Source: Planctomycetota bacterium
GTDB taxonomy: Bacteria; Planctomycetota; UBA8108; SXIK01
Assembly: GCA_965223845.1 (NCBI GenBank)
Contig: CBDCXR010000004.1
Span: forward strand, 2,560,001-2,624,000
DNA length: 64,000 nucleotides
Reading direction: 5' to 3'
The notes beneath the pieces are model-generated. The model worked only from the letters and a program-made list of their open reading frames with translations, did not search any database and had not been told where the DNA came from. Positions 27,101-60,946 of this stretch are shown one piece after another; within the stretch, counting starts at the first letter, position 1; each line of letters opens with the position of its first letter. The position numbers were made by a program, and so were the translations under genes.

Positions 27101-30100
27101 TCACTCGCAGGGCGGAAACGCTTCACAACCGAGAGTGGACGGCGTCGGGTCGATCCCGCAGCCGCTCGTCGGCTCGGGCGGCCTCTGGCCGCGCCCGAAG
27201 AGGAAATTGAGGAGATAGATCGCGTCGGCGATATCGACGCGAGCGCTGTCGTCCGCGTCCGCGCTTTCGAGACAGCTCGGATCGAAGCTCCCGACGAAGA
27301 GGTAGCCGAGGATTGCGACCGGATCGCTGATATCGACGCGCGTGTCGGCGTTCGCGTCCCCGCGCCGGAAGCGGGGCTCGTCCCGCGTTTCGGCGAGATC
27401 GAGCGAGCAGGACGCGCCCCGCGTTCGACTCTCGCCGATCGCGCCGCACACGCTCCACGTCACCGTGCCTTCCGCGAGTGCCGCGACCTCGGCGTCGACG
27501 AAGGAATCGGACGTCCCACCGAGGAGTGCGAGGAGTCGCCCCTGGCGATACACGCGAACGAGGTCGTACGCATCGGCGTTCCGCCACGAGATCACGACGG
27601 ATCCGTCCACGTCCCGTTCGCACGCGAGATCCGCGATCGGCGCCGCGCCGAGCTCGACTTCGATCGCGTTGTCCGCGGACGAGCCGCGCGGATCGAACTC
27701 GACGAGCGTCACGCGGAACCGCGAGCTCTCGTACGGTACGACCACCTGGGCCGAGAAGTTCCGGCGGCCGCCCGGAACGAGGTCGAGGATCGCTTCGACC
27801 GACGTCACCGGTCGCCACGATGCCGTCGCGGGGTCGCGGATCTCGACGCGGAGCTCGTTCTTGGTTTCGAACGGGCGCGCGATACCCCGATTGGTCACTT
27901 CGATCTCGAGCTCGACCGATGCTCCGGGAGCGGCGTGCCGGTCGCTCGCCCGGATCCCCGCGATGGCGAGGTCGCTTTCGAACGCGAGCGATTCGTCGAC
28001 GAGGAAGCTGAAATCGGGCGGACCGTCCGAGCAGTTCCGCACGGTGCGTACAGAGCCGTCCGCACGGAGCGCGACGTCGATCTCGAGATCGTGAGCCGCG
28101 TCGCTCGTCACGCTGCGGGCTCGGCCGACGGTGGGCGCGCCGGTGGCAGCATCGACCGGTGCGATGGCGAGCTCGCCGTCGCCGCCGGAGGCGCCGCGTC
28201 CCTCGAAGCTGCGGAACGCGATGACACCGAACCCGTCGGCGTCGAGCTCCACGCGGGGCCAGCGGCCGCTCGCGGATGCGTCCGGGCGACCGGGAACGGG
28301 GGCAAGTCGCTCGAGCGCACGCGGCGGTGCGAACCGCCCGTCGGCGAGAACGACGGTGTGGACGACGTCCATGTTGCCCTCTCCGGCGACACGTCGAGTC
28401 ACCGGATCGACGCGACGGGTCGTGAACGCCACGATGCCGTTCCCGCCGCGGCTGAGCGCGACGCTCGGCATCAGGGGGCCGGGTGATTCGTCGGGCGTCG
28501 TCAGCGCTTCGGGCGCCTGCCACGCTCCGCCCGCGAGCCGGCTCGCGACGATCATTCGATCGAGCGGCGTGTTGAAGTCACCGTCGAGGTCGCGGACCCA
28601 GACGACGGCACCGAGGGCTCCGAACGGATCGACGGCGATCGCGGGCGCGATGTCCGCAGCAGGCGCGCGACGATCGTCTCCGGAAACGGCGACCGGATCG
28701 CCGACCGCGTTTCCGCGGTCGATTTTCTGGGCCCAGATCGACGTCGAGCTGAGCTTTACGCGGCCGGTCGAATCGACGAACTCGGCGTCGTCCGCGTGAA
28801 TCCACGCCACCCACGCCGCGTCCTCTCCGGGTACGCTCGCGACGACGGGCTTCCCGTCGGGCTCGTCGTTCTCCGTGAGCCGCGCCGGCGCGCTCCATCC
28901 GGTTCGCGAATCCCAGATCGCGTAGAAGATCTCGTCACCCGCGAATCCCGCGTTCAGGTACTCGAGGTCGGTGAGAGATTGCCGGAGGAGCGCCGCCTCG
29001 GCGCGCGGAATCGCATTCTCCGTCCACACCGCGAGCGCGCGACGATCGTCGATGAAGGTGACTTCGACGTCTCGCTGAAACCGGTCGTCGCGAGCGCCGC
29101 GGAGGAACTCCGGCGCTTCCCAGCCGTCGCCGCGATCCACGCTGAAGAGGATCTCCGGGTCGACGTCGTTTTCGCCGAAGTCTTCCACCCATACGAGGAG
29201 CGATAGGTCGAGCTCGGGAGATGTCGCGAGGGACGGCGACTTGAGGCCCGGCCGCGCCTCGCCGCCGGCGAGCGCGCGGAGCTCCTCGTCGTCGTCCTCG
29301 GGATACTCGCAGTCATCCGGATAGGTCGTCGAGAAGAGCTCGAGCTCTTTCGAGAGACAGCCGGCACCGAAAAAGACGCAGCCTTCGAGAGTCGAACCGA
29401 GACTGAGACGAACGCACTCCTCGAGCTCGGTGAGGAGCTCCTGCCCCTGCAGACGCAGCGTGATCGGAAGCGCGAGACCGAGCTCCGGGCGCAGGGTCGC
29501 ACTCACCGAGGCGAGCCCGAAGAGAACGTCGACTTCCGCTTCGCCCTCACCCCAGCCGGTGACCTTGGGGATGAAGCGGACGCCGAGGTCGGCGTACGGC
29601 TCGTCGACTCCGACCTCGACCCGCACATCGGCGTCGAGGTCGACATCCACCCCGACCGTGAGGCTCACGTCGAGCTCGACGTAGACGGGCCCGAACGATC
29701 CTTCCCACAGCGTCTCGTCGAACAGCTCCCACTCCCACGCGTCGTCGTAAAGATCGATTCCGTTCTTGAAATAGAGGACGTTCAGGCGATCGCAAGCGAG
29801 TCCCGCGCTCTCGAACGCGACCTCCTCGTCCCAACGTTTCGAGACGAGATCGCGGGAGAGCAGCTCGAGGTCGACGCTCCCACCGAGCCGACTCGGCAGC
29901 CAGATGCCGTCGGTGTTGCCGAGAGTCTTGATCTCGCGGAACCGAAGCGTCTGGTCGAGTCGAACGTCGAGACGGTTGTCGTACGTCCGGTCGATCACCG
30001 GGACGTCGAATGTGCGTTCCCAAAGAGGCGCGTCCGGAAGCTGAGCGCGGAGAGTGTACTCACGCGTTTCAGGGTCGTAGGTGACGGTCTTCGCGACGAA

Positions 30101-32671
30101 GTCGTAGTCGAAGAACCGCGGGACGGGACAAAGCTTCACGTCGCGAAGTTCTTCGCCGACTCGTCCCGCCTCGTCCTCGGCGACGATCCAGAGCCTGACC
30201 AGCCCGACGGGAGGAAGGTCGCTCATGTTAAACGTCGCCTGCCAAAACGTCTGCGGATCGGGATCGCTCGCGTCCGATTGCACAGCGGAGCTCGCTGCGT
30301 GCACCTCGGCTTCACCGAGATCGCCGTCCGCGCCCACCAGTCGTACGACGACGGAGCGAACCGAAGTGTCCTCCGCGGGCGAGACCAAAAACTTGTACGT
30401 GTTCGATACGTCGGGGTCGACGTCCGGCACGAAGCGCTGATCCTCTGGCTTCGGCGAGAGGTGGGTGATCTTCGGCGCCGCTCCCGCCGGAGGAAGCGGA
30501 ACGTTCGGCTTCACGTCGATGGTGACGGTCTCGCCAGCCTTCGCGCAGTTGTTGTCGGTGACCGTCAACCGAACTTCGTAGAGACCGAAATCGGGAAAGA
30601 CGTGGGTGACCGTCGGCGTCGCGCTTTCGACGGGCGTGCCGTCGCCAAAGCGCCACTCGTACTTGATGATGACGCCGTCTTCGTCCGTCGCGTCCGCGCG
30701 CAGAGTGACGGGCACGCCGTTCTCGCAGGATGCGAGGCCGCGTTCGACTTGCGTTACGATCACCCCGCCGAGATCGATCCCGGACTCGCAGAGGGCGATC
30801 CCGACCGTCTCGTCGCGACCGACGTCGTGGATCACGGGCGGACGATTGCCGGAAATCCCACTGAAGTCGACCAGGGGATAGGGCGGCGGCGGAAACGACC
30901 CTCCGAGCGGATCCGTGCGCGCGTCCGTCGACACGAGGTAGTGATTCGTCGCCGCGTCGCCGCCGTCGATCCAGAATCGGACGGCGTAATCGCCTGCGGG
31001 AACGGGCTCGAGGATGACACCTTCCGCCCACTGCGCGCCGGACGCGATCGCGAGATCACCGAGATCGAACGGGATCGAGGTCGGCTGAAGGATCCCTTTC
31101 AGCTCACCTCGGAGATCGCCGAAGTGGTTCGCGCGCGCGGCGTGGAGGCGCACTCGGAGCCCCGCGAGGCTCTTCGGAATCGAGATTCGAGTTGCGACGT
31201 CGTTTGCACCGTCGCCGAGGAGCGGCACTCGCACGGAGTCGAGTCGCTGGCTGCCGAACTGAATGATCGTCGGGCAATTGACGACCGCGGCGAAGCACAT
31301 CGCGTCTTCTGCGTCATAGAGCTCGCCTCGCCCGACGATCGTGTACGGAACCGCGATCGCGTTCCCGCGCAGCCCCTCCTCCCGATCGTGGTAGCTCGTT
31401 GCATCGCCCGGGAGCGTCGAGACGGGCCGACCGAAACGGAAGACATCGATCGACTCGTACGGAACCGGAGTCGACCAAGTGAGGAACGCTTCGTCGACTC
31501 CGAGCGTACACGTCACATCCTCGACCCCGGGAAGTCGAGGATCACGATACTCGACTGCATCGGGAATCACGACGGGGAGCTCGTTCTCCGCCGCCGGATT
31601 TCTCACCGCGACGTCGTAGAAGCCTTCGTCGTGCGGCGGGACATCGACCGCGATGCGATCTCGCGCCAATCGGCGAGGATTCCGGGCCGGGGTTCCGCCA
31701 ACGGTCACCTCGAGGCCCGCGCGGACGCCCTGACCGTACAAGCGGAGCTCCGTTCCGCCCCGCGTCGGATGAACGAGAGGATCGATCGCTTCGACGGCGA
31801 ACGAAGGCGGTTCGAGCACGGGCCGGTAGAACTCGAGGTTGTCGATGATCTCGTTCCCGTTGTCCGCGATGCCGACTTCGCGTCCACTCTCGAGCGAGAC
31901 GAGGTGGAGCTCGACGCGGTAGATGTCGACTTCCTCGGAGAGTACCGAAAGCGGCCGGTCGACGCTCGTTCTCGTCGCGCCGAGGAGAACGACGTCCTCG
32001 CCGACGACTCTCTCGTTCACATCCAAGGCGCGCAGACGAGCGCGCGTCGTCTCGAGACCGGTCGGAAATCGGAGCCCGGTGAGCATCCGCACGAACTGGA
32101 CGGGTTCGACGAATCGAATCGACATCGGATCCGGGTTGCCGGGCTCGATGTCGTCGGAGCCCTCGAGAACTTGCGCCGCGCGCGGCCGCGACCACGTGAT
32201 CGCGGTGACCGCGCGGACCGGAGGCGTCCGCAGCGGAAAGACGACGCCCTCGTTCTCGTACTGTCGCTCGATCGGAACGTTGTCGTCGAGCTCGTCGAAC
32301 GTGATCAGTGTGCCCGGAAACACCGTCATGCGAGTTTCGGTCGTCTGATCTCCGAACGACGCCGTGACGACGACCTCCTCGGGGCGATCCACCTCCGCGA
32401 CGGCGACGGTCTTCGCGATCGTCCGCTGCGACTCGCCGAGCGAAACGGAGTCCGGCACGGCGAGGATTTCCGGTCGACTGGAGGACAGGTCCACGGTGAG
32501 CCGAGCGGACGGCAGCGGCCGCTCGACCGTGATGCGAACGACCTGAACCTGTCCGTGGACGAGGAATGCGGGAAGTGCGGGCGGGAGCAAGCGTGCGTTC
32601 GGCGGCTCCTGCGCGCGGATCAAGGCCGACCCGAAAAGGACGGCCACGACGGCGAGAGATCGAAGCGTCAT
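27101..32671 (-). CDS. Large (~1850 aa) secreted multidomain protein: Ig/IPT, PKD, beta-propeller-like, CARDB-like and C-terminal dockerin-like domains
   Basis: Signal peptide MTLRSLAVVAVLFGSALIRA. IPT-like P..GGTELRLYG. PKD motif YEWRFGDG..H.F...G.Y.V.LTVTD. C-terminal FRRGDANADTRVDISD..DADDSARVDIAD. Confidence 0.8.
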   Translation of the reverse strand: MTLRSLAVVAVLFGSALIRAQEPPNARLLPPALPAFLVHGQVQVVRITVERPLPSARLTVDLSSSRPEILAVPDSVSLGESQRTIAKTVAVAEVDRPEEVVVTASFGDQTTETRMTVFPGTLITFDELDDNVPIERQYENEGVVFPLRTPPVRAVTAITWSRPRAAQVLEGSDDIEPGNPDPMSIRFVEPVQFVRMLTGLRFPTGLETTRARLRALDVNERVVGEDVVLLGATRTSVDRPLSVLSEEVDIYRVELHLVSLESGREVGIADNGNEIIDNLEFYRPVLEPPSFAVEAIDPLVHPTRGGTELRLYGQGVRAGLEVTVGGTPARNPRRLARDRIAVDVPPHDEGFYDVAVRNPAAENELPVVIPDAVEYRDPRLPGVEDVTCTLGVDEAFLTWSTPVPYESIDVFRFGRPVSTLPGDATSYHDREEGLRGNAIAVPYTIVGRGELYDAEDAMCFAAVVNCPTIIQFGSQRLDSVRVPLLGDGANDVATRISIPKSLAGLRVRLHAARANHFGDLRGELKGILQPTSIPFDLGDLAIASGAQWAEGVILEPVPAGDYAVRFWIDGGDAATNHYLVSTDARTDPLGGSFPPPPYPLVDFSGISGNRPPVIHDVGRDETVGIALCESGIDLGGVIVTQVERGLASCENGVPVTLRADATDEDGVIIKYEWRFGDGTPVESATPTVTHVFPDFGLYEVRLTVTDNNCAKAGETVTIDVKPNVPLPPAGAAPKITHLSPKPEDQRFVPDVDPDVSNTYKFLVSPAEDTSVRSVVVRLVGADGDLGEAEVHAASSAVQSDASDPDPQTFWQATFNMSDLPPVGLVRLWIVAEDEAGRVGEELRDVKLCPVPRFFDYDFVAKTVTYDPETREYTLRAQLPDAPLWERTFDVPVIDRTYDNRLDVRLDQTLRFREIKTLGNTDGIWLPSRLGGSVDLELLSRDLVSKRWDEEVAFESAGLACDRLNVLYFKNGIDLYDDAWEWELFDETLWEGSFGPVYVELDVSLTVGVDVDLDADVRVEVGVDEPYADLGVRFIPKVTGWGEGEAEVDVLFGLASVSATLRPELGLALPITLRLQGQELLTELEECVRLSLGSTLEGCVFFGAGCLSKELELFSTTYPDDCEYPEDDDEELRALAGGEARPGLKSPSLATSPELDLSLLVWVEDFGENDVDPEILFSVDRGDGWEAPEFLRGARDDRFQRDVEVTFIDDRRALAVWTENAIPRAEAALLRQSLTDLEYLNAGFAGDEIFYAIWDSRTGWSAPARLTENDEPDGKPVVASVPGEDAAWVAWIHADDAEFVDSTGRVKLSSTSIWAQKIDRGNAVGDPVAVSGDDRRAPAADIAPAIAVDPFGALGAVVWVRDLDGDFNTPLDRMIVASRLAGGAWQAPEALTTPDESPGPLMPSVALSRGGNGIVAFTTRRVDPVTRRVAGEGNMDVVHTVVLADGRFAPPRALERLAPVPGRPDASASGRWPRVELDADGFGVIAFRSFEGRGASGGDGELAIAPVDAATGAPTVGRARSVTSDAAHDLEIDVALRADGSVRTVRNCSDGPPDFSFLVDESLAFESDLAIAGIRASDRHAAPGASVELEIEVTNRGIARPFETKNELRVEIRDPATASWRPVTSVEAILDLVPGGRRNFSAQVVVPYESSRFRVTLVEFDPRGSSADNAIEVELGAAPIADLACERDVDGSVVISWRNADAYDLVRVYRQGRLLALLGGTSDSFVDAEVAALAEGTVTWSVCGAIGESRTRGASCSLDLAETRDEPRFRRGDANADTRVDISDPVAILGYLFVGSFDPSCLESADADDSARVDIADAIYLLNFLFGRGQRPPEPTSGCGIDPTPSTLGCEAFPPCE

Positions 32672-32922
32672 TGGAACAGATCTCCGGGGCGCGACGACGA
32701 ACGGGGCGGAGCTCCCCGCGGCGCCGCGTCGCTCGGGAGTCGCGCCGGACGCCGTCACGTGGCGTCCGACGCGGGAGGAAACCGAGCCGCCGTGCTCGAC
32801 GTGGACCGAGAATCTCGAACTTTTTTTCCGCCGGGGCGATGGACCCCCGAGGGCGCGTTCGTCGCTCGGACCGGGGAGCGCCCCTCGACTGGCTTCCCGG
32901 AGCGGCATACGATGCTCTCGCG

Positions 32923-37082: not shown

Positions 37083-38180
37083 TCAGCTCCCGGGACGCCG
37101 GCGGGTCGCGCTCCCCTCGGTCTTCTTCGGCGCGTCGTCTTCGACCGGCTTCTGCTCGAGGAGCTTCCCGGGATCGATCAGGACCGGCTTCTGACCGGGC
37201 CCGGGACTCTCCACCTTCGGTCCGGGGAGTCCCTCCGGGCGCTCGAAGAGCTCGTCCTCGAGACCGGCGTTGAACTGAACGCTCCGGTACCGTCGCTCGG
37301 TGTCGAGATCGCCGTCGCCGTAGATCTCCTGCAGCATCGAGAAGTTGATGGCGAGGCCGGAGTCATCCATGAAGGGGATCTTCTTGTAGCGCTTGAAGTA
37401 CTGCTCCCGCTTGATCGGCTTCGACGGATTGCGCGTCGTGTCGCGCCATTCTTTCTTGAGCAGCAGCCCGGTTTCGCGCGAGAAGAAGTAACGCTCGATC
37501 TGTCGCCCCGAGAAGTCGACGATCTTCACGATATCCGCGGACTCGATCTCCTCGCCGGTGTCGATCTCCGCTTCGCCTCCGAGCGTAGCGACGTAGCCGT
37601 CGTCCGCCCAGTGGCAGAAGAAGTCATCCATGTATTTCCCGTGGACGAAGACGAGGAGCGTGTTGCCATCGAGGCGATCCACTCGCCCCATCACTTGAAC
37701 CCATCCTTCTTCCGTCTCGTCGCTGTAGACCTGAACGAATGCGAGCTTCTGCCCCTCCTTGATCTCGTAATTGAGCTCCCACTCTTCGCGCAGGTTGTAG
37801 TCCCCCTTGATCATGAGCGTGATGTCCGCTCGCGCTTCGCTCGTCGGTTGGAAAATCGTGTTCGTATACGAAACCTTTCGGTCCGCGATCTTGTCGAGAA
37901 CCGGTCGACCGCCGATGGCGGTGAGATAGCGATCGATGACGGCGATCGCCTTCGGATCGCTCACGGGACTCGGCTTCCCGTCTTGACCGAAGATCAGAGT
38001 TCCGCCCGCGTCCGCGCCGCTCGCGGTGTCTTGAGCCGTTGCGGTCGGCGCCTGCTCCTGCGCCCCGATGAATCCGCCGGCGACCACCAGCGCCAGTCCG
38101 AACGCTCCGATCAACAGCCGCGCGTAAGCCGGCCCGAAGGGCACTTGCCGCATCTTCATCCTGCTCGAACTCCACTGCAT
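37083..38180 (-). CDS. Secreted protein, LolA/outer-membrane-lipoprotein-sorting-like fold (tentative)
   Basis: Signal/TM segment, 'VIDRYLTAIGG', YFFSRETGLLLK, and a C-terminal 'FNAGLEDELF' typical of LolA-like proteins. Confidence 0.5.
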   Translation of the reverse strand: MQWSSSRMKMRQVPFGPAYARLLIGAFGLALVVAGGFIGAQEQAPTATAQDTASGADAGGTLIFGQDGKPSPVSDPKAIAVIDRYLTAIGGRPVLDKIADRKVSYTNTIFQPTSEARADITLMIKGDYNLREEWELNYEIKEGQKLAFVQVYSDETEEGWVQVMGRVDRLDGNTLLVFVHGKYMDDFFCHWADDGYVATLGGEAEIDTGEEIESADIVKIVDFSGRQIERYFFSRETGLLLKKEWRDTTRNPSKPIKREQYFKRYKKIPFMDDSGLAINFSMLQEIYGDGDLDTERRYRSVQFNAGLEDELFERPEGLPGPKVESPGPGQKPVLIDPGKLLEQKPVEDDAPKKTEGSATRRRPGS

Positions 38181-38529: not shown

Positions 38530-39723
38530 TCAAAGTCCGGCTTCGCCGGATGGCGACGCAGTCTCGGAGACGGCGGGTACGGTTTCCGACGACCGCTCGG
38601 AGTAGACGAGACTCGACACCTTCGCGGCCGGGATCGGGCGGCGCGTGTGGAGAAACGAGAAGCCCTCGTCGTCGAGCCAAAGCCTGACCGTACTCGCTGG
38701 GACGAAGAGGCCCATGTGAGGAACGACGGTCGGCTGCCGCTTTCCATACGTGTAGATCATGCTCGATACGCCGATCAACTCGCTCCGCTCGGCGCAGAAG
38801 ACTCCGCCGCCCGAGTTTCCGAAGAACGTCGGTGCGTTCAGCATCCAGAAGTTCTGCGATCCGACGCGCTTCGTGCGGGACGAGATCTCGCCGAGAGTGG
38901 GAAGGGGGTGGTTCCCGAGCGGACAGCCGACGGCGTACGCCGGAGAGAAGACGTCGATCTCGCGCATGCGGTCGGGGTCGATCCAGCTCGCGACGAACGG
39001 GAATCGCTCGGTGGAGTTCAGCCGAAGCAGGGCGAGATCGCGCGCCTGATCGAAGAGCACCATGTCCGCGGACTCGGTGCGGAGGATGTCGCTTTCGGGA
39101 CGCGAGGCGATGTGGACCTCGTCGACGGTGCGGGCGTCAGCGCGGTCGCCGGTGACCTCGAGGACGACATGGTGCGCGGTGAGAATAAACGTCGTGTACG
39201 CCGGGATATCGCCCGGTCGCGAAATCGGCTGGAGCTCGCTGTAGACGATGACTCCGCTCCCGACCGTCCCGTTCCCGCGGAGCTGAACCGTCGGGAGAAT
39301 CATCCGCTCGCGCATCTCGCGCGCGTCACGGTCGAGCCGCGCGGACATGCGCTGGATCGCCGACGCCGCGCCGGCGAGGCGCTCGCACTCGGTCTCGAGT
39401 CCCTCGGAGATCGTCCGGTCGTAGCTTGCGAGTCGGTTCTCGATGAAGGTCGCCGTCGAGCGCTGGTTCGCGTCGAGGCGCGCAACCGTCTCGAGGATGG
39501 AATCCCGCTCGCCCCGAAGCTCACTCGCCGAGCGCTCGACGAGACCGCGGAGCTCGCGGTGCGTGTCGAGAGAATGCGCGTGAACGCGGGCGAGGTCGGA
39601 CTCGACCGACGCGCGCGGGCGAAGATCGAAGACGCCGTTCTGAAGCGCGAAGATCAGTGCCACAAGGACGATCAATTTGAGTGTCTCGACCGCACTTGCT
39701 CGGAGCCAGCGCTTCACTTTCAT
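38530..39723 (-). CDS. Membrane-anchored trypsin-like (S1) serine protease with coiled coil
   Basis: GSGV, LTAHHV (His), DLALL (Asp), GNSGGG (Ser); N-terminal TM; no PDZ domain. Confidence 0.88.
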   Translation of the reverse strand: MKVKRWLRASAVETLKLIVLVALIFALQNGVFDLRPRASVESDLARVHAHSLDTHRELRGLVERSASELRGERDSILETVARLDANQRSTATFIENRLASYDRTISEGLETECERLAGAASAIQRMSARLDRDAREMRERMILPTVQLRGNGTVGSGVIVYSELQPISRPGDIPAYTTFILTAHHVVLEVTGDRADARTVDEVHIASRPESDILRTESADMVLFDQARDLALLRLNSTERFPFVASWIDPDRMREIDVFSPAYAVGCPLGNHPLPTLGEISSRTKRVGSQNFWMLNAPTFFGNSGGGVFCAERSELIGVSSMIYTYGKRQPTVVPHMGLFVPASTVRLWLDDEGFSFLHTRRPIPAAKVSSLVYSERSSETVPAVSETASPSGEAGL

Positions 39724-40056
39724 CTCTACTTCCCTCGTCTGAGTCAGAGTGCGGTTCGACCGAAAACACCACCGTCGCTACCGCCCCTCACCTCTCCGAG
39801 CGAGCGGCAAGGTCGGGCTGAGAATACGATGCGCCGATGGCGCGTCGCAAACGGCGCCACCGAGAGCCGAAACGCGGTCGACCCTATAACGGTCGGCTCG
39901 CCGGGCCCGAGAGTCTCACTCGATTCCCGGGCGAAAGCGGTCGTTCCGAGAACTCGATGAGTCTTCGGAATGGTTTCCTCAGGAGATCGAGGCCGCGGAA
40001 CGGTGCTCGGGAGCTCTGCTCTAGCCGATGTCCGCGCCCCGGAGCGGCGTCGCTGC

Positions 40057-42933
40057 TTAGCTCTCGCCGGATGGGCGGTCGTCCGCCGGTCCGTCCGACT
40101 CGAGGACGATGTTGACGAGCCGCTGCGGAACGGCCACCACCTTGCGGATCCGGCGGGGCCCCACGATCTCGCGGATGATGTCTCGCTGGAGTGCGCTCGC
40201 TTCGAGCTTCTCCGCCTTCCAGTCGGCGGAGGTTTCCATGCGATCGCGGATCTTACCGTTCACCAACACCGGGACGACGACGTCGTCGGGTTGGACGAGC
40301 TCTTCGCTCGCCTGGGGCCACTCTTCATCCTCGACGCTCGACTCTTCCCCGAGCTTCTTCCACATCTCCTCGGCGAAATCGGGAACGAGCGGAGTGAGGA
40401 GGATGACGAGAGTCCGGAGCGCGGCGGAGTCCATCTCTTCGATCGTGGTCTCTTTCTGGCCGAGGAATCGGACGAAGTGACACACCGCCGCGATCGCCGT
40501 GTGGATCTGCAGCCGATCGAGACGACGACTCACGGAATCGATGAGTCGGTGCTTCGCGACGAGCATCCGCTGCGAGACGAACTTCCCGTGCTCGTGCCGC
40601 CGGAGGATCTCGCGCCGGACGCGATCGAGAAGCTTCCGCTTGTGGAAGACGCCATGCTCGTCGGCCGTTACGGGGCGGTGGAGTGCGCCGAGCGACAAGA
40701 CGTGCAGGCGAACCGCGTCCGCGCCGTACTTCCGGATCCACTCCATCCAGTCCGGCTCCTCTCCGGACGTGGAACGGACGCGAGCGATGCGCTGGTAGCG
40801 ATGGAACGGCTCGTACACGGGGCATTCGCCGAGGTCGTAGAGGATCTTCGCGATGAGTCGCACGGCGAGCAAATCGCGTGCGGTGAGCGAATCGGGGCCG
40901 AACGTCATGCTGATCGGAAGCGGCGCGAAGCCGTGCTCTTCGCTGAGAAAGGGATGGAGCTTCTTCGGTTCGTCCGCCGAGGGCGCGCGACGCCGATTCG
41001 CCCGGCGACGTCGATCCCGTCGCTCGCTGGCCGGCTCGTTCTCGGGCGCCGCGACCGACGTAGCGGTCTCGCTTCGTTCGGGTTCGACCTCCGCGCCATC
41101 GCCAGACCCCGGAGACTCCACCCGCGAAGGCTCGTCGCCATCGTCCGGTGGAGGCGGATCGTCCGGTGGCGACGGATCGTCCGGCCCTCTCGCGCCGCTC
41201 TCCGTCTCGCGCGAGGCATCGCCATCGTCGGGATTCTCGCGGTCTTCGCTCGAACGAGGTTCGCCCGGATCGTCCGCGTCTCCCACCGCGCCGTTCTCGT
41301 CACCGGGCGGCGATGCGGGTTCGGGGGCGGAGGTCGGATCCTTCGCCTCTTCGAGTTCCTCCGCGGCCTCGGGATGACTCTCCTCCTCCACCGCGCGCAG
41401 TTCGGGTTCACCTCCCGGTTCTCGACTCTCGGCAGAACCGTCCGTCTCGGCTTCGTCGTCGCACTGAAGGTCGGACTCGCCGCCGTCCGGCTCGCCCGAG
41501 AGGCGCGCGAACCCTTCGAGCTCGCCGTCGAGATGCGGCGACACCGCGCGCAGGAAGCTCCACGCGCGTCCGAGCCAAGGGAGGATCACTTGCCCGTCGA
41601 GCTCGGACGCCTCGCCGCACTGGGGACAAGGCGCGTGCGTGTCGGCGTCGGGGTCGGCCCGCCGAGGCAAGGCCGCGGTCGGCACCGGTACGGCACCACA
41701 GCGATCGCAGTGGATCACCGGGATCGGTGCACCGCGCGAAAACCTTCCCGACAGCGGTAGTCGACGAAAGCGAAAACGGGTGACGCGGCGGCAGATCCCG
41801 CGGCGACCGAGGAAGGCGATGATCCGATCGCGCCCCACTTTGACGGCGAGGCTCGTGAACGGTCCGGAGTTCGTCAGAACACCGTCGCCCGTCCAGGCTT
41901 CCGTGAGGCGGCTCGCGGAGTCGAACTTGGCGGCATCGTTGTGAATCACCTCGCGAATCGGGAGCCGCATCTCCTTCGCGAGACGGAAGAGCTCGGGATC
42001 GTGACCCGGAACACCCATCACGACCCCGTCGCTGTACGCGTTGTCCGCGAGCGGGCTCAATAGGATCGGGATGCGCTTGAGCGTCGCCGGATTGATCGCG
42101 AATCCGCCCGTGTGGGTCGCCGATCGTCGCGGGGCGTCGTGACGACGAAGGCGATCGCGATACTTCTCGACCTCGTCGGTGTACGCCCAATCGATGAGCT
42201 CGTCGGCGAGCGGGTTGAACGGACTGACGAGGAGAAACGTCGCCCCGTAGATCGCTTCGCACTGCGTCGTGAAAACGCGCAGCTCCGAGTATTCCGTCTC
42301 AAAGGGACGCGACACCGCAAACGTGATCTCGACGCCGCGCCGCCGCGTGAGGAACTGTCGCTGCCGCGTGCGAAGCTGCGGCGTCCAGCGCGCCTTGTCG
42401 ATGTCGCCGAGAAGGCGCTCGCCGAACGGCTCCGACCAGAGGTACCACCGGGACACGACGCGATCTTCGAACGTGCCGCCGCAGTGGGGACAGTCGAGGT
42501 AGCGGCCCGTGGGCGCCTCGAGCGCGCAGCTCGTACACACGCTTCGGTTCTGCGTGACGTAGCGCGCGAGTCCACGCTCGAGGAGCTGGATGAAGACCCA
42601 CTGCGAAAGCCGGTAGTACGGGGGCGCCGAGGTATCGAAGATGTCGCTCGGTGGCGTGAGTCGAAGCGAAGCGATGAGTTCGGTGAGAAAGCGACGGCCA
42701 CCGTCTTCGTCACCCCCGCTCTCGGCGCCGCCTTCCGCCTCGCGCCCGTCGGCGAACCCGTCGCTCGCCTGGACTAGGAACACCTCGCGCCCGCGGAGAC
42801 GCTGGAAGCGGACCCAGACGTCGGTCGCGAACCAGCGGCGGATGAGATCGCCGTCGAGTTTCCCCGCCCCTTCGCTCCGGGGAACGGGCCAGGCGAAAAC
42901 GGAATGTCTCCCCTTCGGTGAACTGCTCGGCAT
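40057..42933 (-). CDS. Leucyl-tRNA synthetase paralog with degenerate catalytic motifs (probable pseudo-enzyme)
   Basis: LeuRS order is recognisable throughout (YYRLSQW.F, FTT..GATF, TGGFAINP, VMGVPGHD, NSGPF, GAPIPVIHC, YGADAVRL, VNGKIR..KVVAVPQRLVNIV). HIGH reads DGDL and KMSKS is absent. Open frame with an AGGAG RBS. Confidence 0.85.
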   Translation of the reverse strand: MPSSSPKGRHSVFAWPVPRSEGAGKLDGDLIRRWFATDVWVRFQRLRGREVFLVQASDGFADGREAEGGAESGGDEDGGRRFLTELIASLRLTPPSDIFDTSAPPYYRLSQWVFIQLLERGLARYVTQNRSVCTSCALEAPTGRYLDCPHCGGTFEDRVVSRWYLWSEPFGERLLGDIDKARWTPQLRTRQRQFLTRRRGVEITFAVSRPFETEYSELRVFTTQCEAIYGATFLLVSPFNPLADELIDWAYTDEVEKYRDRLRRHDAPRRSATHTGGFAINPATLKRIPILLSPLADNAYSDGVVMGVPGHDPELFRLAKEMRLPIREVIHNDAAKFDSASRLTEAWTGDGVLTNSGPFTSLAVKVGRDRIIAFLGRRGICRRVTRFRFRRLPLSGRFSRGAPIPVIHCDRCGAVPVPTAALPRRADPDADTHAPCPQCGEASELDGQVILPWLGRAWSFLRAVSPHLDGELEGFARLSGEPDGGESDLQCDDEAETDGSAESREPGGEPELRAVEEESHPEAAEELEEAKDPTSAPEPASPPGDENGAVGDADDPGEPRSSEDRENPDDGDASRETESGARGPDDPSPPDDPPPPDDGDEPSRVESPGSGDGAEVEPERSETATSVAAPENEPASERRDRRRRANRRRAPSADEPKKLHPFLSEEHGFAPLPISMTFGPDSLTARDLLAVRLIAKILYDLGECPVYEPFHRYQRIARVRSTSGEEPDWMEWIRKYGADAVRLHVLSLGALHRPVTADEHGVFHKRKLLDRVRREILRRHEHGKFVSQRMLVAKHRLIDSVSRRLDRLQIHTAIAAVCHFVRFLGQKETTIEEMDSAALRTLVILLTPLVPDFAEEMWKKLGEESSVEDEEWPQASEELVQPDDVVVPVLVNGKIRDRMETSADWKAEKLEASALQRDIIREIVGPRRIRKVVAVPQRLVNIVLESDGPADDRPSGES

Positions 42934-43097
42934 CGCTCCTCGAAATCCGGGGCCCGGCGATCGCCCGACCGGCTTGAAACGCGGCGGGGAATGCGTGTAG
43001 GGCCTTGCCCCATCGGCACTTCCACCTAGTCGGCGGCGCGGGAATGGAAGGGGCGAAGATATAGCGGAAGGAGAGGGTGTTCAATGCAAAAACAACC

Positions 43098-43125
43098 TTG
43101 ACAGCTAGACGGCGTCCTCTATGAT
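43098..43125 (+). promoter_or_regulatory. sigma70 promoter of tRNA-Ala
   Basis: TTGACA-16 nt-TATGAT, preceded by an A-rich tract. Confidence 0.75.
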
Positions 43126-43195: not shown

Positions 43196-43271
<76 letters not shown>

Positions 43272-43284
43272 CCGACGGACGAAC

Positions 43285-43314
43285 GAGAGCGAGCCTCGAG
43301 CTCGCTCTTTTTTT
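43285..43314 (+). terminator. Rho-independent terminator after tRNA-Ala
   Basis: AGAGCGAGC-ctcga-GCTCGCTCT stem followed by a T run. Confidence 0.85.
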
Positions 43315-43405
43315 GTTCGATCGGTCGCGTTGGTGGCGATTCGAATTGCGACGCCGCACGCCACCGTCCCTCACCGTACGTGCGGCTGGATCTGGGGAGT
43401 TCCCG

Positions 43406-45667
43406 ATGGTTCTAAAGTTCTCGCTGCACGCCGCGCTGGTCTCGCTCGTCTGGGCGCTGAGCTCGCTCGGCGCGCTCGCTTCGCCACCCGGAGACGGTCC
43501 GGACATTTCCTTTCTCCCCGTTCTCGATTCCTCCTCGTCGGCGCCGGCCGCGGTCGATTACCTCGTCGCGAAGCCGGCGCGACGCGCCGAGGTGTTTCGG
43601 AGCGAAGACGGCCGCGAACTCATCCTGACGAACGGACTCGTCCGGAGAGTCTGGCGCGTACGCCCGGCGGTCGCCTGCGTCGCTTTCGACGAGCTCCGAT
43701 CGAGCCGATCGATTCTCCGCGCGGTCCGACCGGAGGCGCGCCTCATCATCGACGGTGAAACGGCGACGATCGGCGGACTGGCGGGGCAAGTCAACCACGC
43801 CTATCTCACGCCGGAGGGACTCGACGCCCTCAAACTCGACCCGAGCGCGTACCGCTGCGTTCGCATCTCGGTTGGTGAGCCTCGGCCGCGATTCCCGTGG
43901 CGACGCGTCCGTCACCACGCACCGAACGCGGCCTGGCCTCCGCCGGGAGCCTCGCTTCGCTTCGATTTCGTTCCCCCCGAAGACAACACGGCGCTCGCCG
44001 GTGTCGTGGTCTCGGTCCACTACGAGCTCTACGACGGCGTGCCCGTTCTCAGCAAATGGCTCCGCGTATCCAACGGCACGGAACATGCGATCGATGTCGA
44101 TCGGTTCACCCTCGAGATTCTGGCCGTCGTCGAACACGACAATCCGGTCGAGCTCCGCGCAGGAGTGGATCCGCTCCCGCCGGATTCACTCCACGTCGAG
44201 ACGGACTACGCGTTCGGCGGGTTCACCCACCGGAACGCGGCGCGCTTCAGCGTGAGCTGGCGTGCGGATCCGGCGTATCACACGCAGGTCAACTGGGCGA
44301 AGCAGACGCCCTGCCTCCTCGTCGTCGAGCCGACGCGCGGACCGGATCAAACGGTGCCGCCCGGCGAGGTGTTCGAATCGTTCCGCGCCTTCGAGCTCGT
44401 GCACGACTCAAGCGAGCGGGAACGCCGCGGCCTCGCGTTGCGCCGCATGTACCGCACGATCGCGCCGTGGGTCACCGAGAACCCGCTGATTCTCCACGTC
44501 GTGAGCACGGACCCAGACATCGTGCGGCGCGCGATCGACCAAGCGGCGGAGTGCGGGTTCGAGATGGTGAGCCTGAGCTTCGGAAGCGGGCTCAACATGG
44601 AAGACGGATCGGACGAGAACCTCGAGAAGTTTCGCGCTCTCTCCGCGTACGCGGCGGAGCGCGGAATCCATCTCGGAGGGTATTCCCTCCTGTCGAGTCG
44701 ACGCGTGAAGCCCGACGGTGACAACTGCATCCATCCCGAGACCGGAAAGCCCGGCGGACAGACACACGGCTACTGTCCCGCACTCGCCTCGGCCTGGGGA
44801 CAGAGCTACCTGAAGAAGCTCCGCGCGTTTTACGAACGGACCGGGTTTCTTCAGTTCACACACGACGGATCGTACCCCGGCGACTTCGACGCCGCGGCGC
44901 GGCCACCGCTTCAGAAGGGCCTCGACGACTCCCAGTGGGTTCAGTGGCGCGAGATCACGAGCTTCTATCGCTGGCTTCGGTCTCGAGGAGTGTATCTCCG
45001 CGTCCCCGATTACTATTTTCTGAGTGGAAGCAACGAATGCGGTATGGGCTACCGCGAAGTGAACTGGTCCCTCCCGCGCGATCAGCAAGTCATCCACACA
45101 AGGCAGAACATCTTCGACGGAACCTGGGAGAAAACGCCGTCGATGGGCTGGATGTTCGTTCCGCTCACGCAGTACCACGGCGGCGGCGCGGCGGCGACGA
45201 TCGAGCCTCTCGATCAACACATCGAGCACTACGAGCGAATGCTCACGAGCAACCTCGGACTCGGTGTGCAGGCGGTCTACCGCGGGCACCGTCTGTACGA
45301 CACTGATCGCGTGCGCGATCTCGTGACGCGCTGGGTCGCTTGGTACAAGGAGCACCGGTCGATCCTCGAGTCCGATCTCGTCCACGGGCGGCGCGCTGAC
45401 GGTCGTGACCTCGACTGGATGCTCCACGTCGGGCCCGATCTCGAGACGAAGGGGATGCTCGTCGTCTACAACCCGCTGCCGAAGCCACGTCGGCGGACGA
45501 TTTCCGTGCCGCTCTACTACACCGGGATCGCGGAGAAAGCGCGCATCACATCGGATCTCGGCGACGAGACCGATCACGCGCTCGACCGCACGCACCGCGT
45601 CGCACTCGACGTCGAAGTTCCCGCGCGCGCCATGCGCTGGTTCGCCATCCGGAGCGCCGACGAGTGA
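43406..45667 (+). CDS. Secreted alpha-galactosidase-like glycoside hydrolase (GH36/clan-D related)
   Basis: Signal peptide, LTNGLVRR N-terminal domain, RTIAPWVTENP, IDQAAECGFEMV.LSFGSG, HDGSYPGD. Family assigned from recall. Confidence 0.65.
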   Translation: MVLKFSLHAALVSLVWALSSLGALASPPGDGPDISFLPVLDSSSSAPAAVDYLVAKPARRAEVFRSEDGRELILTNGLVRRVWRVRPAVACVAFDELRSSRSILRAVRPEARLIIDGETATIGGLAGQVNHAYLTPEGLDALKLDPSAYRCVRISVGEPRPRFPWRRVRHHAPNAAWPPPGASLRFDFVPPEDNTALAGVVVSVHYELYDGVPVLSKWLRVSNGTEHAIDVDRFTLEILAVVEHDNPVELRAGVDPLPPDSLHVETDYAFGGFTHRNAARFSVSWRADPAYHTQVNWAKQTPCLLVVEPTRGPDQTVPPGEVFESFRAFELVHDSSERERRGLALRRMYRTIAPWVTENPLILHVVSTDPDIVRRAIDQAAECGFEMVSLSFGSGLNMEDGSDENLEKFRALSAYAAERGIHLGGYSLLSSRRVKPDGDNCIHPETGKPGGQTHGYCPALASAWGQSYLKKLRAFYERTGFLQFTHDGSYPGDFDAAARPPLQKGLDDSQWVQWREITSFYRWLRSRGVYLRVPDYYFLSGSNECGMGYREVNWSLPRDQQVIHTRQNIFDGTWEKTPSMGWMFVPLTQYHGGGAAATIEPLDQHIEHYERMLTSNLGLGVQAVYRGHRLYDTDRVRDLVTRWVAWYKEHRSILESDLVHGRRADGRDLDWMLHVGPDLETKGMLVVYNPLPKPRRRTISVPLYYTGIAEKARITSDLGDETDHALDRTHRVALDVEVPARAMRWFAIRSADE

Positions 45668-60862: not shown

Positions 60863-60946
60863 TGCCTCGGGTGGGAATCGAACCCACACTCCCGTAAGGG
60901 AACGAGATTTTGAATCTCGCGCGTCTGCCAATTCCGCCACCGAGGC
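60863..60946 (-). tRNA. tRNA-Leu(CAA)
   Basis: Minus strand GCCTCGGTGGCGGAATTGGCAGACGCG-CGAGA-TTCAAAA-TCTCG, long variable arm, GGTTCGATTCC, CCGAGGC-A. CCA is not encoded. Confidence 0.96.

Follow-up and report, generated by a model that had tools for sequence, protein, structure and literature searches.

A 64,000-nucleotide stretch of the genome of a Planctomycetota bacterium (assembly GCA_965223845.1, contig CBDCXR010000004.1, positions 2,560,001 to 2,624,000; hereafter the window) carries on its reverse strand a gene whose 958-residue product, P0001, is related to leucyl-tRNA synthetase (LeuRS) and belongs to a group of LeuRS paralogs that we call parA. The gene is flanked upstream by a divergently oriented tRNA-Ala(GGC) gene and downstream by a gene for a trypsin-like peptidase. 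A reading of the gene made from the sequence alone had taken it for an intact but catalytically dead LeuRS paralog, and the comparative analysis reported here supports that view and suggests that the protein has probably acquired a role in RNA binding. With a genomic G+C content of about 66%, long spurious open reading frames (ORFs) are abundant in this organism, an example being a 596-aa ORF on the forward strand (39970-41760) inside the paralog gene; the open frame alone therefore says little, and it is homology that decides. Against the bacterial LeuRS model TIGR00396 (leuS_bact) the protein scores 281.1 bits (1.8e-83), below the curated cut-off of 548.4 bits, and its top sequence match in the PDB is the LeuRS of T. 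thermophilus (1h3n, 8.1e-71). The archaeal model TIGR00395 (leuS_arch) gives 69.4 bits over residues 731-886 only. A Pfam scan recovers the LeuRS editing domain (PF13603, 1.2e-29, residues 194-374) and Anticodon_1 (PF08264, 2.6e-13) and does not detect the catalytic-core family PF00133; there is no dedicated Pfam or NCBIfam model for the parA family. Judged by these profiles, the paralog is a real LeuRS homolog of bacterial type and not a chance ORF of a high-GC genome; the 958-codon frame with a ribosome-binding site, colinear with bacterial LeuRS, that had been claimed earlier agrees with the ORF, its GAGGAG element and the matches to TIGR00396 and 1h3n.

HMMER and MAFFT alignments to 1h3n and to canonical LeuRS indicate that the residues on which leucine activation and transfer depend are missing from parA, and its members are accordingly predicted to be inactive. 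Our parA alignment has 27 rows, 25 of them distinct, and was compared with 17 canonical rows. The HIGH motif is absent from all 25 parA rows that cover the site, neither of its histidines being found in any member, and is present in 17/17 canonical rows; likewise KMSKS is missing from 27/27 parA rows and kept in 17/17 canonical ones. Aligned to 1h3n by HMMER, P0001 skips from chain residue 569 to 651 and has about 20 residues in place of the missing stretch; the leucine-specific domain has been deleted along with the KMSKS loop, a loss of a whole domain that the sequence-only reading overlooked. The GxDAFG site of the paralog reads SDGFA, the RDWxxSRQRYWG site RRLPLSGRFSRG and the YxGGxEHAxLHLLY site TFGPDSLTARDLLA; both EHAxLH and RQRYWG are gone across parA. 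These alignments bear out the replacements previously read by eye (HxGH by DGDL, GWDAFG by ASDGFA, degraded RDW..RQRYWG and YIGG.EHA.LHL sites, and loss of KMSKS), except that the leucine-pocket motif FPYPSG, formerly paired with VPRSEG, aligns with FAWPVP and is degenerate either way. The YYRxTQWIFL segment is kept. A pattern search, which was a crude regular-expression test, returned 11 more full-length database representatives without HIGH and KMSKS. An RLSKR match in P0010 and P0012 was rejected as a KMSKS motif because it sits inside an acidic insert characteristic of the family and not at the KMSKS site.

The editing site, whose loss had also gone unnoticed, is equally altered. TTRPDT reads TTQCEA in the paralog, and the second Asp of AHDxRD, which we take to correspond to E. 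coli D345 and to anchor the substrate amino group in the LeuRS editing site, is a Leu. This position is occupied by Leu, Phe or Gln in 27/27 parA rows, by His in one further database representative found by the pattern check, and by the original Asp in 17/17 canonical rows; in several parA members the first Asp has likewise given way to His, Asn or Glu. No parA member has an intact editing site, and the paralog thus lacks the defining feature of a free-standing trans-editing factor too. What has been retained is the fold. An AlphaFold2 model built from an 18-sequence family alignment has a predicted template-modeling score (pTM) of 0.70, with most folded blocks at a predicted local distance difference test (pLDDT) score of 85-97, and its top 49 Foldseek matches in the PDB are all bacterial LeuRS (E 1e-49 to 1e-37; target-normalized template-modeling score 0.61-0.75). 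As modeled, the LeuRS fold is kept together with its CP1, helical and C-terminal domains. The last two are the best-conserved parts of the protein (identity within parA 0.55 and 0.61, respectively) and contain G(K/R)(F/Y)VS and TxEE(M/V)D, the signature of the family; over the 18 family sequences 100 alignment columns are invariant. Of the structural parts that had been said to survive, the helical and C-terminal domains therefore stand, on the PF08264 match, high conservation and pLDDT of ~85-97, and CP1 stands as a fold but not as an editing site. Both Cys pairs of the two proposed zinc (Zn) knuckles are present in P0001; elsewhere, a portion of the family is without the first knuckle and some members are without the second.

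The parA proteins also contain an acidic, proline-rich insert of ~180-200 residues in P0001, which had been passed over. Its pLDDT lies below 50 over residues 481-656, a prediction of disorder, and its net charge in P0001 is -38 to -40. Such an insert, of 150-251 residues and with a net charge of -22 to -79, is found in 27/27 parA rows, whereas canonical LeuRS has 9 residues there; it is absent from the canonical rows and from two further groups of paralogs, parB and parC. The strings PEDxDxF, DEPETI and LRPF recur within the insert of many members, the first two being absent from P0001. The folded remainder is basic in most members, with an isoelectric point (pI) of 8.3-9.4 in 13/18 database members and 8.6 in P0001; the canonical LeuRS of the same genome has a pI of 5.0.

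Leucine tRNAs in the host of the paralog would be charged by this separate canonical LeuRS, which is encoded on the same contig about 1.1 Mb away (G000:C4:1484467-1487472) in a genome estimated to be 91.7% complete. It scores 890.8 bits summed against TIGR00396 and has the motifs HVGH, GFDAFG, TTRPDT, AHDERD, RDWLFSRQRYWG, GGAEHAVLHLLY and KMGKS intact, so the paralog is not the only leuS of its genome. The canonical LeuRS proteins of the order (L001, L033-L037) are unusually long at ~1000-1025 aa, with large insertions that follow their first Rossmann half or lie within CP1. The parA family itself is small and sharply bounded because a score gap precedes the canonical enzymes: a sequence search gave 17 cluster representatives (P0002-P0018) at 796-483 bits followed by a drop to ordinary LeuRS at 305 bits, and an exhaustive search of 1.84 billion representatives gave 17 full-length sequences at or above 378 bits, the query included, plus three fragments, with canonical enzymes bearing HVGH and KMSKS beginning at 281 bits. 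Whole-genome searches found parA-level matches in 20/20 genomes of the same order, the full-length ones without internal stops; public records call the carriers only Planctomycetota or Planctomycetia metagenome-assembled genomes (MAGs). Members such as P0004, P0007, P0008 and P0013-P0015 appear in one database source as 'leucyl-tRNA synthetase' and in another as 'class I tRNA ligase family protein', and the former name is probably a functional mis-annotation.

Ratios of nonsynonymous to synonymous substitution (dN/dS; Nei-Gojobori method, ortholog pairs with dS 0.1-1.5) are 0.18-0.30 over the whole gene. They are 0.07-0.12 in CP1, 0.09-0.13 in the helical domain and 0.04-0.16 in the C-terminal domain, and rise to 0.25-0.42 in the N-terminal Rossmann half and 0.25-0.40 in the acidic insert. 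Because the overall ratio is low, and low in CP1 and the C-terminal domain in particular, the paralog is clearly under purifying selection and is not a pseudogene. It nonetheless evolves faster than the canonical enzyme, with 34-49% identity across genomes in which canonical LeuRS is 65-71% identical (the latter measured between the canonical leuS of the window genome and its orthologs in five related genomes). The expectations of a single clade sharing the same losses and of a dN/dS below 1 are thus realized, the losses being found in every row and the orthologs having neither stops nor frameshifts. Aminoacyl-tRNA synthetase (aaRS) homology, loss of catalytic residues, a canonical enzyme elsewhere in the genome and purifying selection within a clade are the sequence-level marks of a pseudo-synthetase, and their joint presence supports this classification and, through the motif losses, the earlier description of the paralog as catalytically dead. 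Conversely, four of the five sequence-testable defining features of bacterial LeuRS are lacking, the fold being the one that is found, and for this reason we do not file the paralog as a leucine--tRNA ligase.

Related proteins are present elsewhere in the class. In other orders, parB (families f4 and f6; the 5 loci L019, L021, L023, L028 and L030) has SVNQ or SVSQ at the HIGH site, no KMSKS, a badly degraded editing site and no insert, and it may be a ligand-binding but non-activating intermediate. Family f5, parC, is shorter and more degenerate. The CP1 domains of both are much more degraded (GAILAxPxxDxRxK) than that of parA. A tree built by a quick method, in which some branches are long (2.7 substitutions per site for L026), separates all 33 paralog rows from all 22 canonical ones with a support of 100; the parA clade has a support of 95 in the Shimodaira-Hasegawa-like approximate likelihood ratio test (SH-aLRT) and the parB clade one of 100. 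We do not accept an ancient origin on the ground that the paralogs lie outside all sampled canonical LeuRS, as fast, long branches make their placement unreliable. Derived features shared by parA and parB are a helical-domain motif, G(K/R)(F/Y)VSRxxLxxKHxLI, with a deletion relative to canonical LeuRS, and TxEE(M/V)D; identity in the helical domain is 0.45 between parA and parB as against 0.28-0.31 between either and canonical LeuRS. With the C-terminal 234 residues as query, a search of 251 genomes from across the phylum gave two matches apiece in 12/13 genomes inside the class and in 0/238 outside it, and scores of at least 146 bits occurred only inside the class. One genome, G021, which is 93% complete, yielded no paralog. 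The conserved genomic position of parA, parB and parC shows that they represent a single orthologous locus, decayed to a varying extent.

This position is defined by a tRNA gene on one side and a peptidase gene on the other (Table 1). In the window, as in 10/10 other distinct parA genomes (12 loci, one with the anticodon CGC), the gene immediately upstream is one for tRNA-Ala; the same holds for 5/5 parB loci (4 divergent, 1 co-directional) and for 2/2 parC loci having upstream DNA. No tRNA was seen at the 7 canonical leuS loci examined. The tRNA-Ala(GGC) of the window is ordinary-looking (G3:U70, A73, CCA encoded) and is the sole normal-length GGC isoacceptor in the genome. Rfam at the gathering threshold reports two tRNAs only in the window, and hence no known RNA element beside the paralog. 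The -35 box of the tRNA-Ala promoter is invariant in 8/8 aligned intergenic loci, and on the opposite strand a TTGAA(C/A) box and a TAT-rich box are also conserved, the two -35 boxes being 13 bp apart. A consensus promoter scan made no call for this putative paralog promoter; nevertheless, the intergenic conservation suggests that the paralog and the tRNA-Ala gene are probably driven by back-to-back promoters. On the other side, at a distance of 333 bp in the window, the peptidase gene is found downstream in 10/12 parA, 5/5 parB and 3/3 parC loci having downstream DNA. The 397-aa peptidase scores far below the cut-off of TIGR02037, has a long predicted helical stretch before its protease domain, and from its sequence is probably membrane-anchored and extracytoplasmic apart from ~15 N-terminal residues. 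It forms a conserved pair downstream of the paralog with a 365-aa protein that has no Pfam or NCBIfam match.

Table 1. Features of the paralog gene and its neighborhood (coordinates are those of the window).
Feature	Coordinates	Strand	Basis or remark
LeuRS-like pseudo-synthetase coding sequence (parA, P0001; 958 aa)	40057..42933	-	intact ORF, ATG start
Shine-Dalgarno-like GAGGAG	42936..42941	-	2 nt before paralog ATG; read from sequence
LDGDL, residues 26-30, at class I HIGH position	42844..42858	-	alignment to 1h3n and canonical LeuRS
CP1 (editing-type) domain, residues 194-374	41812..42354	-	PF13603 1.2e-29; motif comparison
Acidic, proline-rich disordered insert, residues 481-656	40966..41493	-	pLDDT; ~470-667 by alignment
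Short linker replacing leucine-specific domain and KMSKS loop, residues ~711-732	40738..40803	-	1h3n alignment
Helical (anticodon-binding-type) and C-terminal domains, residues 761-945	40099..40653	-	PF08264; pLDDT ~85-97
Possible paralog promoter (TTGAAC, 15-nt spacer, TATATC)	43058..43084	-	inferred; both boxes conserved in 8 intergenic regions
tRNA-Ala sigma-70-type promoter (TTGACA, 16 nt, TATGAT)	43098..43125	+	11/12 consensus positions
tRNA-Ala(GGC)	43196..43271	+	ARAGORN and Rfam; divergent from paralog, 262 bp upstream
Terminator-like hairpin after tRNA-Ala	43285-43309		
397-aa trypsin-like (DegP/HtrA-related) peptidase, N-terminal hydrophobic anchor	38530..39723	-	PF13365 1e-14
365-aa protein, signal-peptide-like N-terminus	37083..38180	-	downstream in 9/12 parA loci

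Some further features of the surroundings may be recorded. A mechanically called 818-aa ORF (43211-45667, forward strand) starts inside the tRNA-Ala gene and crosses the terminator; the real start of its product is probably near 43406 (MVLKFSLHAAL..., signal-peptide-like), and the protein has no Pfam match and no counterpart in related loci. A 1935-aa ORF with a PKD domain (27101-32908, reverse strand) has matches to its last ~100 residues, at 46-50% identity, in L038, L040, L041, L049 and L050, where they lie a few kb upstream of the paralog, on the opposite side and in a different orientation. A tRNA-Leu(CAA) gene (60863-60946, reverse strand) is situated ~18 kb from the paralog. Elsewhere in the genome ARAGORN reports two tRNAs with a CUA anticodon (labeled tRNA-Pyl), one tRNA-SeC(TCA) and a 90-nt 'tRNA-Ala(ggc)'; these odd calls (G000:C4:1643846-1643919, 6791124-6791203, 7438635-7438732 and 467861-467950) may be suppressor-like tRNAs or false positives. 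The idea of a tRNA-Leu intron served by the paralog as splicing factor was dropped, as ARAGORN flagged no intron in the 6 tRNA-Leu genes, although no search for group I introns was made.

In LeuRS the CP1, helical and C-terminal domains hold the 3' end, body and elbow of the tRNA, as in the tRNA complexes of the E. coli and T. thermophilus enzymes, and such complexes are among the Foldseek matches of the parA model. As selection on the paralog concentrates on these tRNA-holding parts, we infer RNA binding, and on the evidence of conserved domains and charge the pseudo-synthetase kept under selection probably has a new role of this kind. On balance, and with some reserve, we favor the view that it is a non-catalytic derivative of LeuRS which performs no chemistry but binds tRNA or some other structured RNA, its acidic insert serving as a competitor or gate. 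The protein would have retained the LeuRS architecture, namely the Rossmann-fold shell with the CP1, helical and C-terminal domains, and, both charging and proofreading sites being lost, is predicted to be without catalysis. It would act through binding, as a sensor, chaperone, sequestering factor or regulator, and the acidic insert, placed beside the dead synthetic site on a basic body, might compete with the RNA or gate its access. The earlier reading had put forward binding or sequestration of tRNA-Leu, RNA regulation and scaffolding as candidate roles. The paralog would be transcribed divergently from tRNA-Ala(GGC), likely from back-to-back promoters, in an arrangement found throughout the class.

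Several points weigh against this proposal. The case for RNA binding consists of conserved domains and charge, and the 4 sequencing runs that hold the gene come from one study, none of them being recorded as RNA. CP1 is the most constrained domain and yet remodeled, and a new ligand or a new chemistry would explain this no less well than passive binding of RNA does. Since parB retains the pocket motifs (FPYPS, GWDSFG, RDWxFxRQRYWGEP and GGIEHAILHLLY), the binding of leucine or an adenylate-like ligand, and not of tRNA alone, may have belonged to the original function of the paralog, and the near-invariant D-G-F of GxDAFG kept in parA may leave a residual small-ligand site there. A tRNA-binding model does not explain the class-wide linkage to the gene for a periplasm-facing peptidase, and it may be an artefact of evolutionary rate that the paralogs fall outside every canonical LeuRS sampled.

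If the dead core were a scaffold only, the protein could instead work as an enzyme or as a sensor of ligands by way of a re-purposed CP1 pocket, which would bind or hydrolyze a non-alpha-amino acyl-tRNA, the mischarged product of another tRNA or a small molecule. This would account for the place of CP1 among the most constrained regions and for its family-specific invariants, which include E226, D248, Y251, R261, S271, E328 and H331 (P0001 numbering); the canonical pocket is moreover partly kept (FT(T), the last Gly of GTG, P-x-H and TNSG), and most members retain the His-Asp of AHD. However, the Asp presumed to anchor the amino group is replaced in every row, the Asp before it is itself substituted in several members, and any CP1 chemistry would have to be specific to parA and not a shared function because the CP1 domains of parB and parC are so much more degraded; we hold this explanation to be possible, if unlikely. 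The conserved linkage to tRNA-Ala(GGC) raises the possibility of a target other than tRNA-Leu, and the paralog could then be tied to its neighbors, either retargeted to tRNA-Ala(GGC), which it would bind, protect or regulate, or acting as a regulator in a tRNA-Ala/paralog/peptidase module. That the order of the three genes is kept in parA, parB and parC at a protein identity of only ~25-35% speaks for such a tie, as do the conservation and close spacing of the two -35 boxes and the lack of a second normal-length GGC isoacceptor. Yet adjacency may reflect only a shared promoter architecture or low rearrangement, the tRNA is an ordinary tRNA-Ala, the CGC anticodon at one parA locus and the co-directional tRNA at one parB locus break the pattern, direct contact with a probably extracytoplasmic peptidase is disfavored, and the gap before the peptidase gene suggests separate transcription; we hold such a tie to be rather unlikely. 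It is conceivable, though we think it quite improbable, that a retargeted LeuRS scaffold, tRNA-Ala(GGC) and the membrane peptidase constitute a class-wide module in which the sensing of tRNA charging is coupled to envelope proteolysis or growth control, with the acidic insert as an RNA-mimicking gate and with tRNA-Ala(GGC) or another tRNA as the one sensed. Were this true, bacteria would have in the paralog a LeuRS-derived equivalent of the pseudo-synthetase domain with which GCN2 senses tRNA.

Two further explanations fare worse. An active second LeuRS with non-canonical motifs, for example an antibiotic-resistant or stress isoform, has precedents in active LeuRS duplicates, of which AgnB2 of Agrobacterium K84 (5ah5) is among the structural matches, and in the weak activity that the part of PMC4005665 drawn on here gives for NmLeuRS2. 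In parA, however, deletion and not substitution accounts for the lack of the KMSKS loop and of the leucine-specific domain, no member has a HIGH histidine, EHAxLH and RQRYWG are gone, and the TIGR00396 score is about half the equivalog cut-off, so that we find this very improbable. A decaying pseudogene, or a chance open ORF of a high-GC genome, would agree with the lost catalytic motifs, with the faster evolution relative to canonical LeuRS and with the occurrence of spurious antisense ORFs. It is refuted by the data on selection and conservation: full-length orthologs without internal stops in genomes of the same order, a dN/dS that falls below 0.16 in three domains, the invariant columns, a confidently folded model and the persistence of the family across the class leave it practically no chance. 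Our preferred interpretation remains a pseudo-synthetase that would bind RNA without chemistry.

It is recognized that new regulators can arise from synthetase duplicates which have abandoned catalysis. The parA family should be of real interest to the synthetase field, although it lies in uncultured lineages. The three stages of decay within one class, represented by parB, parA and parC, offer a natural series for the order in which synthetase functions are lost and for what is retained last, and the constant flanking of the locus by genes for a tRNA and a peptidase provides a concrete, testable hypothesis. In practical terms, annotation of the family as LeuRS could distort counts of marker genes or reconstructions of metabolism for Planctomycetota MAGs. 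No account of a planctomycete or other bacterial LeuRS pseudo-paralog was found in the literature searched, which included the portions used of PMC9437257, PMC5388404, PMC3423927 and PMC4452313 and did not extend to subscription journals or supplements.

With canonical bacterial LeuRS (TIGR00396; 1h3n and E. coli 4aq7/4as1) parA shares its architecture and fold, the CP1, helical and C-terminal domains and the YYRxTQWIFL segment; unlike it, parA lacks HIGH, the KMSKS loop, the leucine-specific domain and the editing Asp, and has a 150-251-aa acidic disordered insert on a basic folded part. A closer parallel in general outline is LeuRS-I of the Sulfolobaceae, a second LeuRS which, according to the portion of PMC9437257 used here, charges no tRNA but still forms leucyl-adenylate and binds tRNA-Leu; its CP1 editing domain is disrupted, its C-terminal domain is acidic, and it is believed to have a tRNA-dependent role outside translation. 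The second copy, the disrupted CP1 and an acidic region recur in parA, the inactivity of which is predicted from sequence. However, LeuRS-I is of archaeal type and parA of bacterial type (leuS_bact 281 versus leuS_arch 69 bits), and parA has lost the adenylation motifs and bears its acidic region as an internal insert and not as a C-terminal domain, so that on what those pages say of LeuRS-I it is an analog and not a member of that group. The Halobacteria likewise have a duplicated LeuRS, LeuRS2, with a presumed non-housekeeping role (PMC4005665 and PMC9437257, in the parts consulted), and the former describes NmLeuRS2 of Natrialba magadii as weaker yet active in aminoacylation and editing. 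As far as the same pages go, parA resembles NmLeuRS2 in being a duplicate and differs in lacking the motifs for either activity. The LeuRS cases in the portion of the review PMC9437257 used here, which also lists HisZ, are archaeal and still partly active; the planctomycete paralog departs from them in being bacterial, in having lost both active sites and in being under strong purifying selection. At the level of a working principle, the proposed behavior of parA may be compared with proteins of a different synthetase class. The HisRS-like domain of GCN2 and HisZ are synthetase folds with a dead active site that have been retained for binding or regulation. By analogy, parA would be another dead aaRS fold kept for binding, although GCN2 and HisZ derive from class II HisRS and operate in different contexts, and parA, with no sign of a kinase or enzyme partner, would represent a bacterial LeuRS-derived variant of the same principle.

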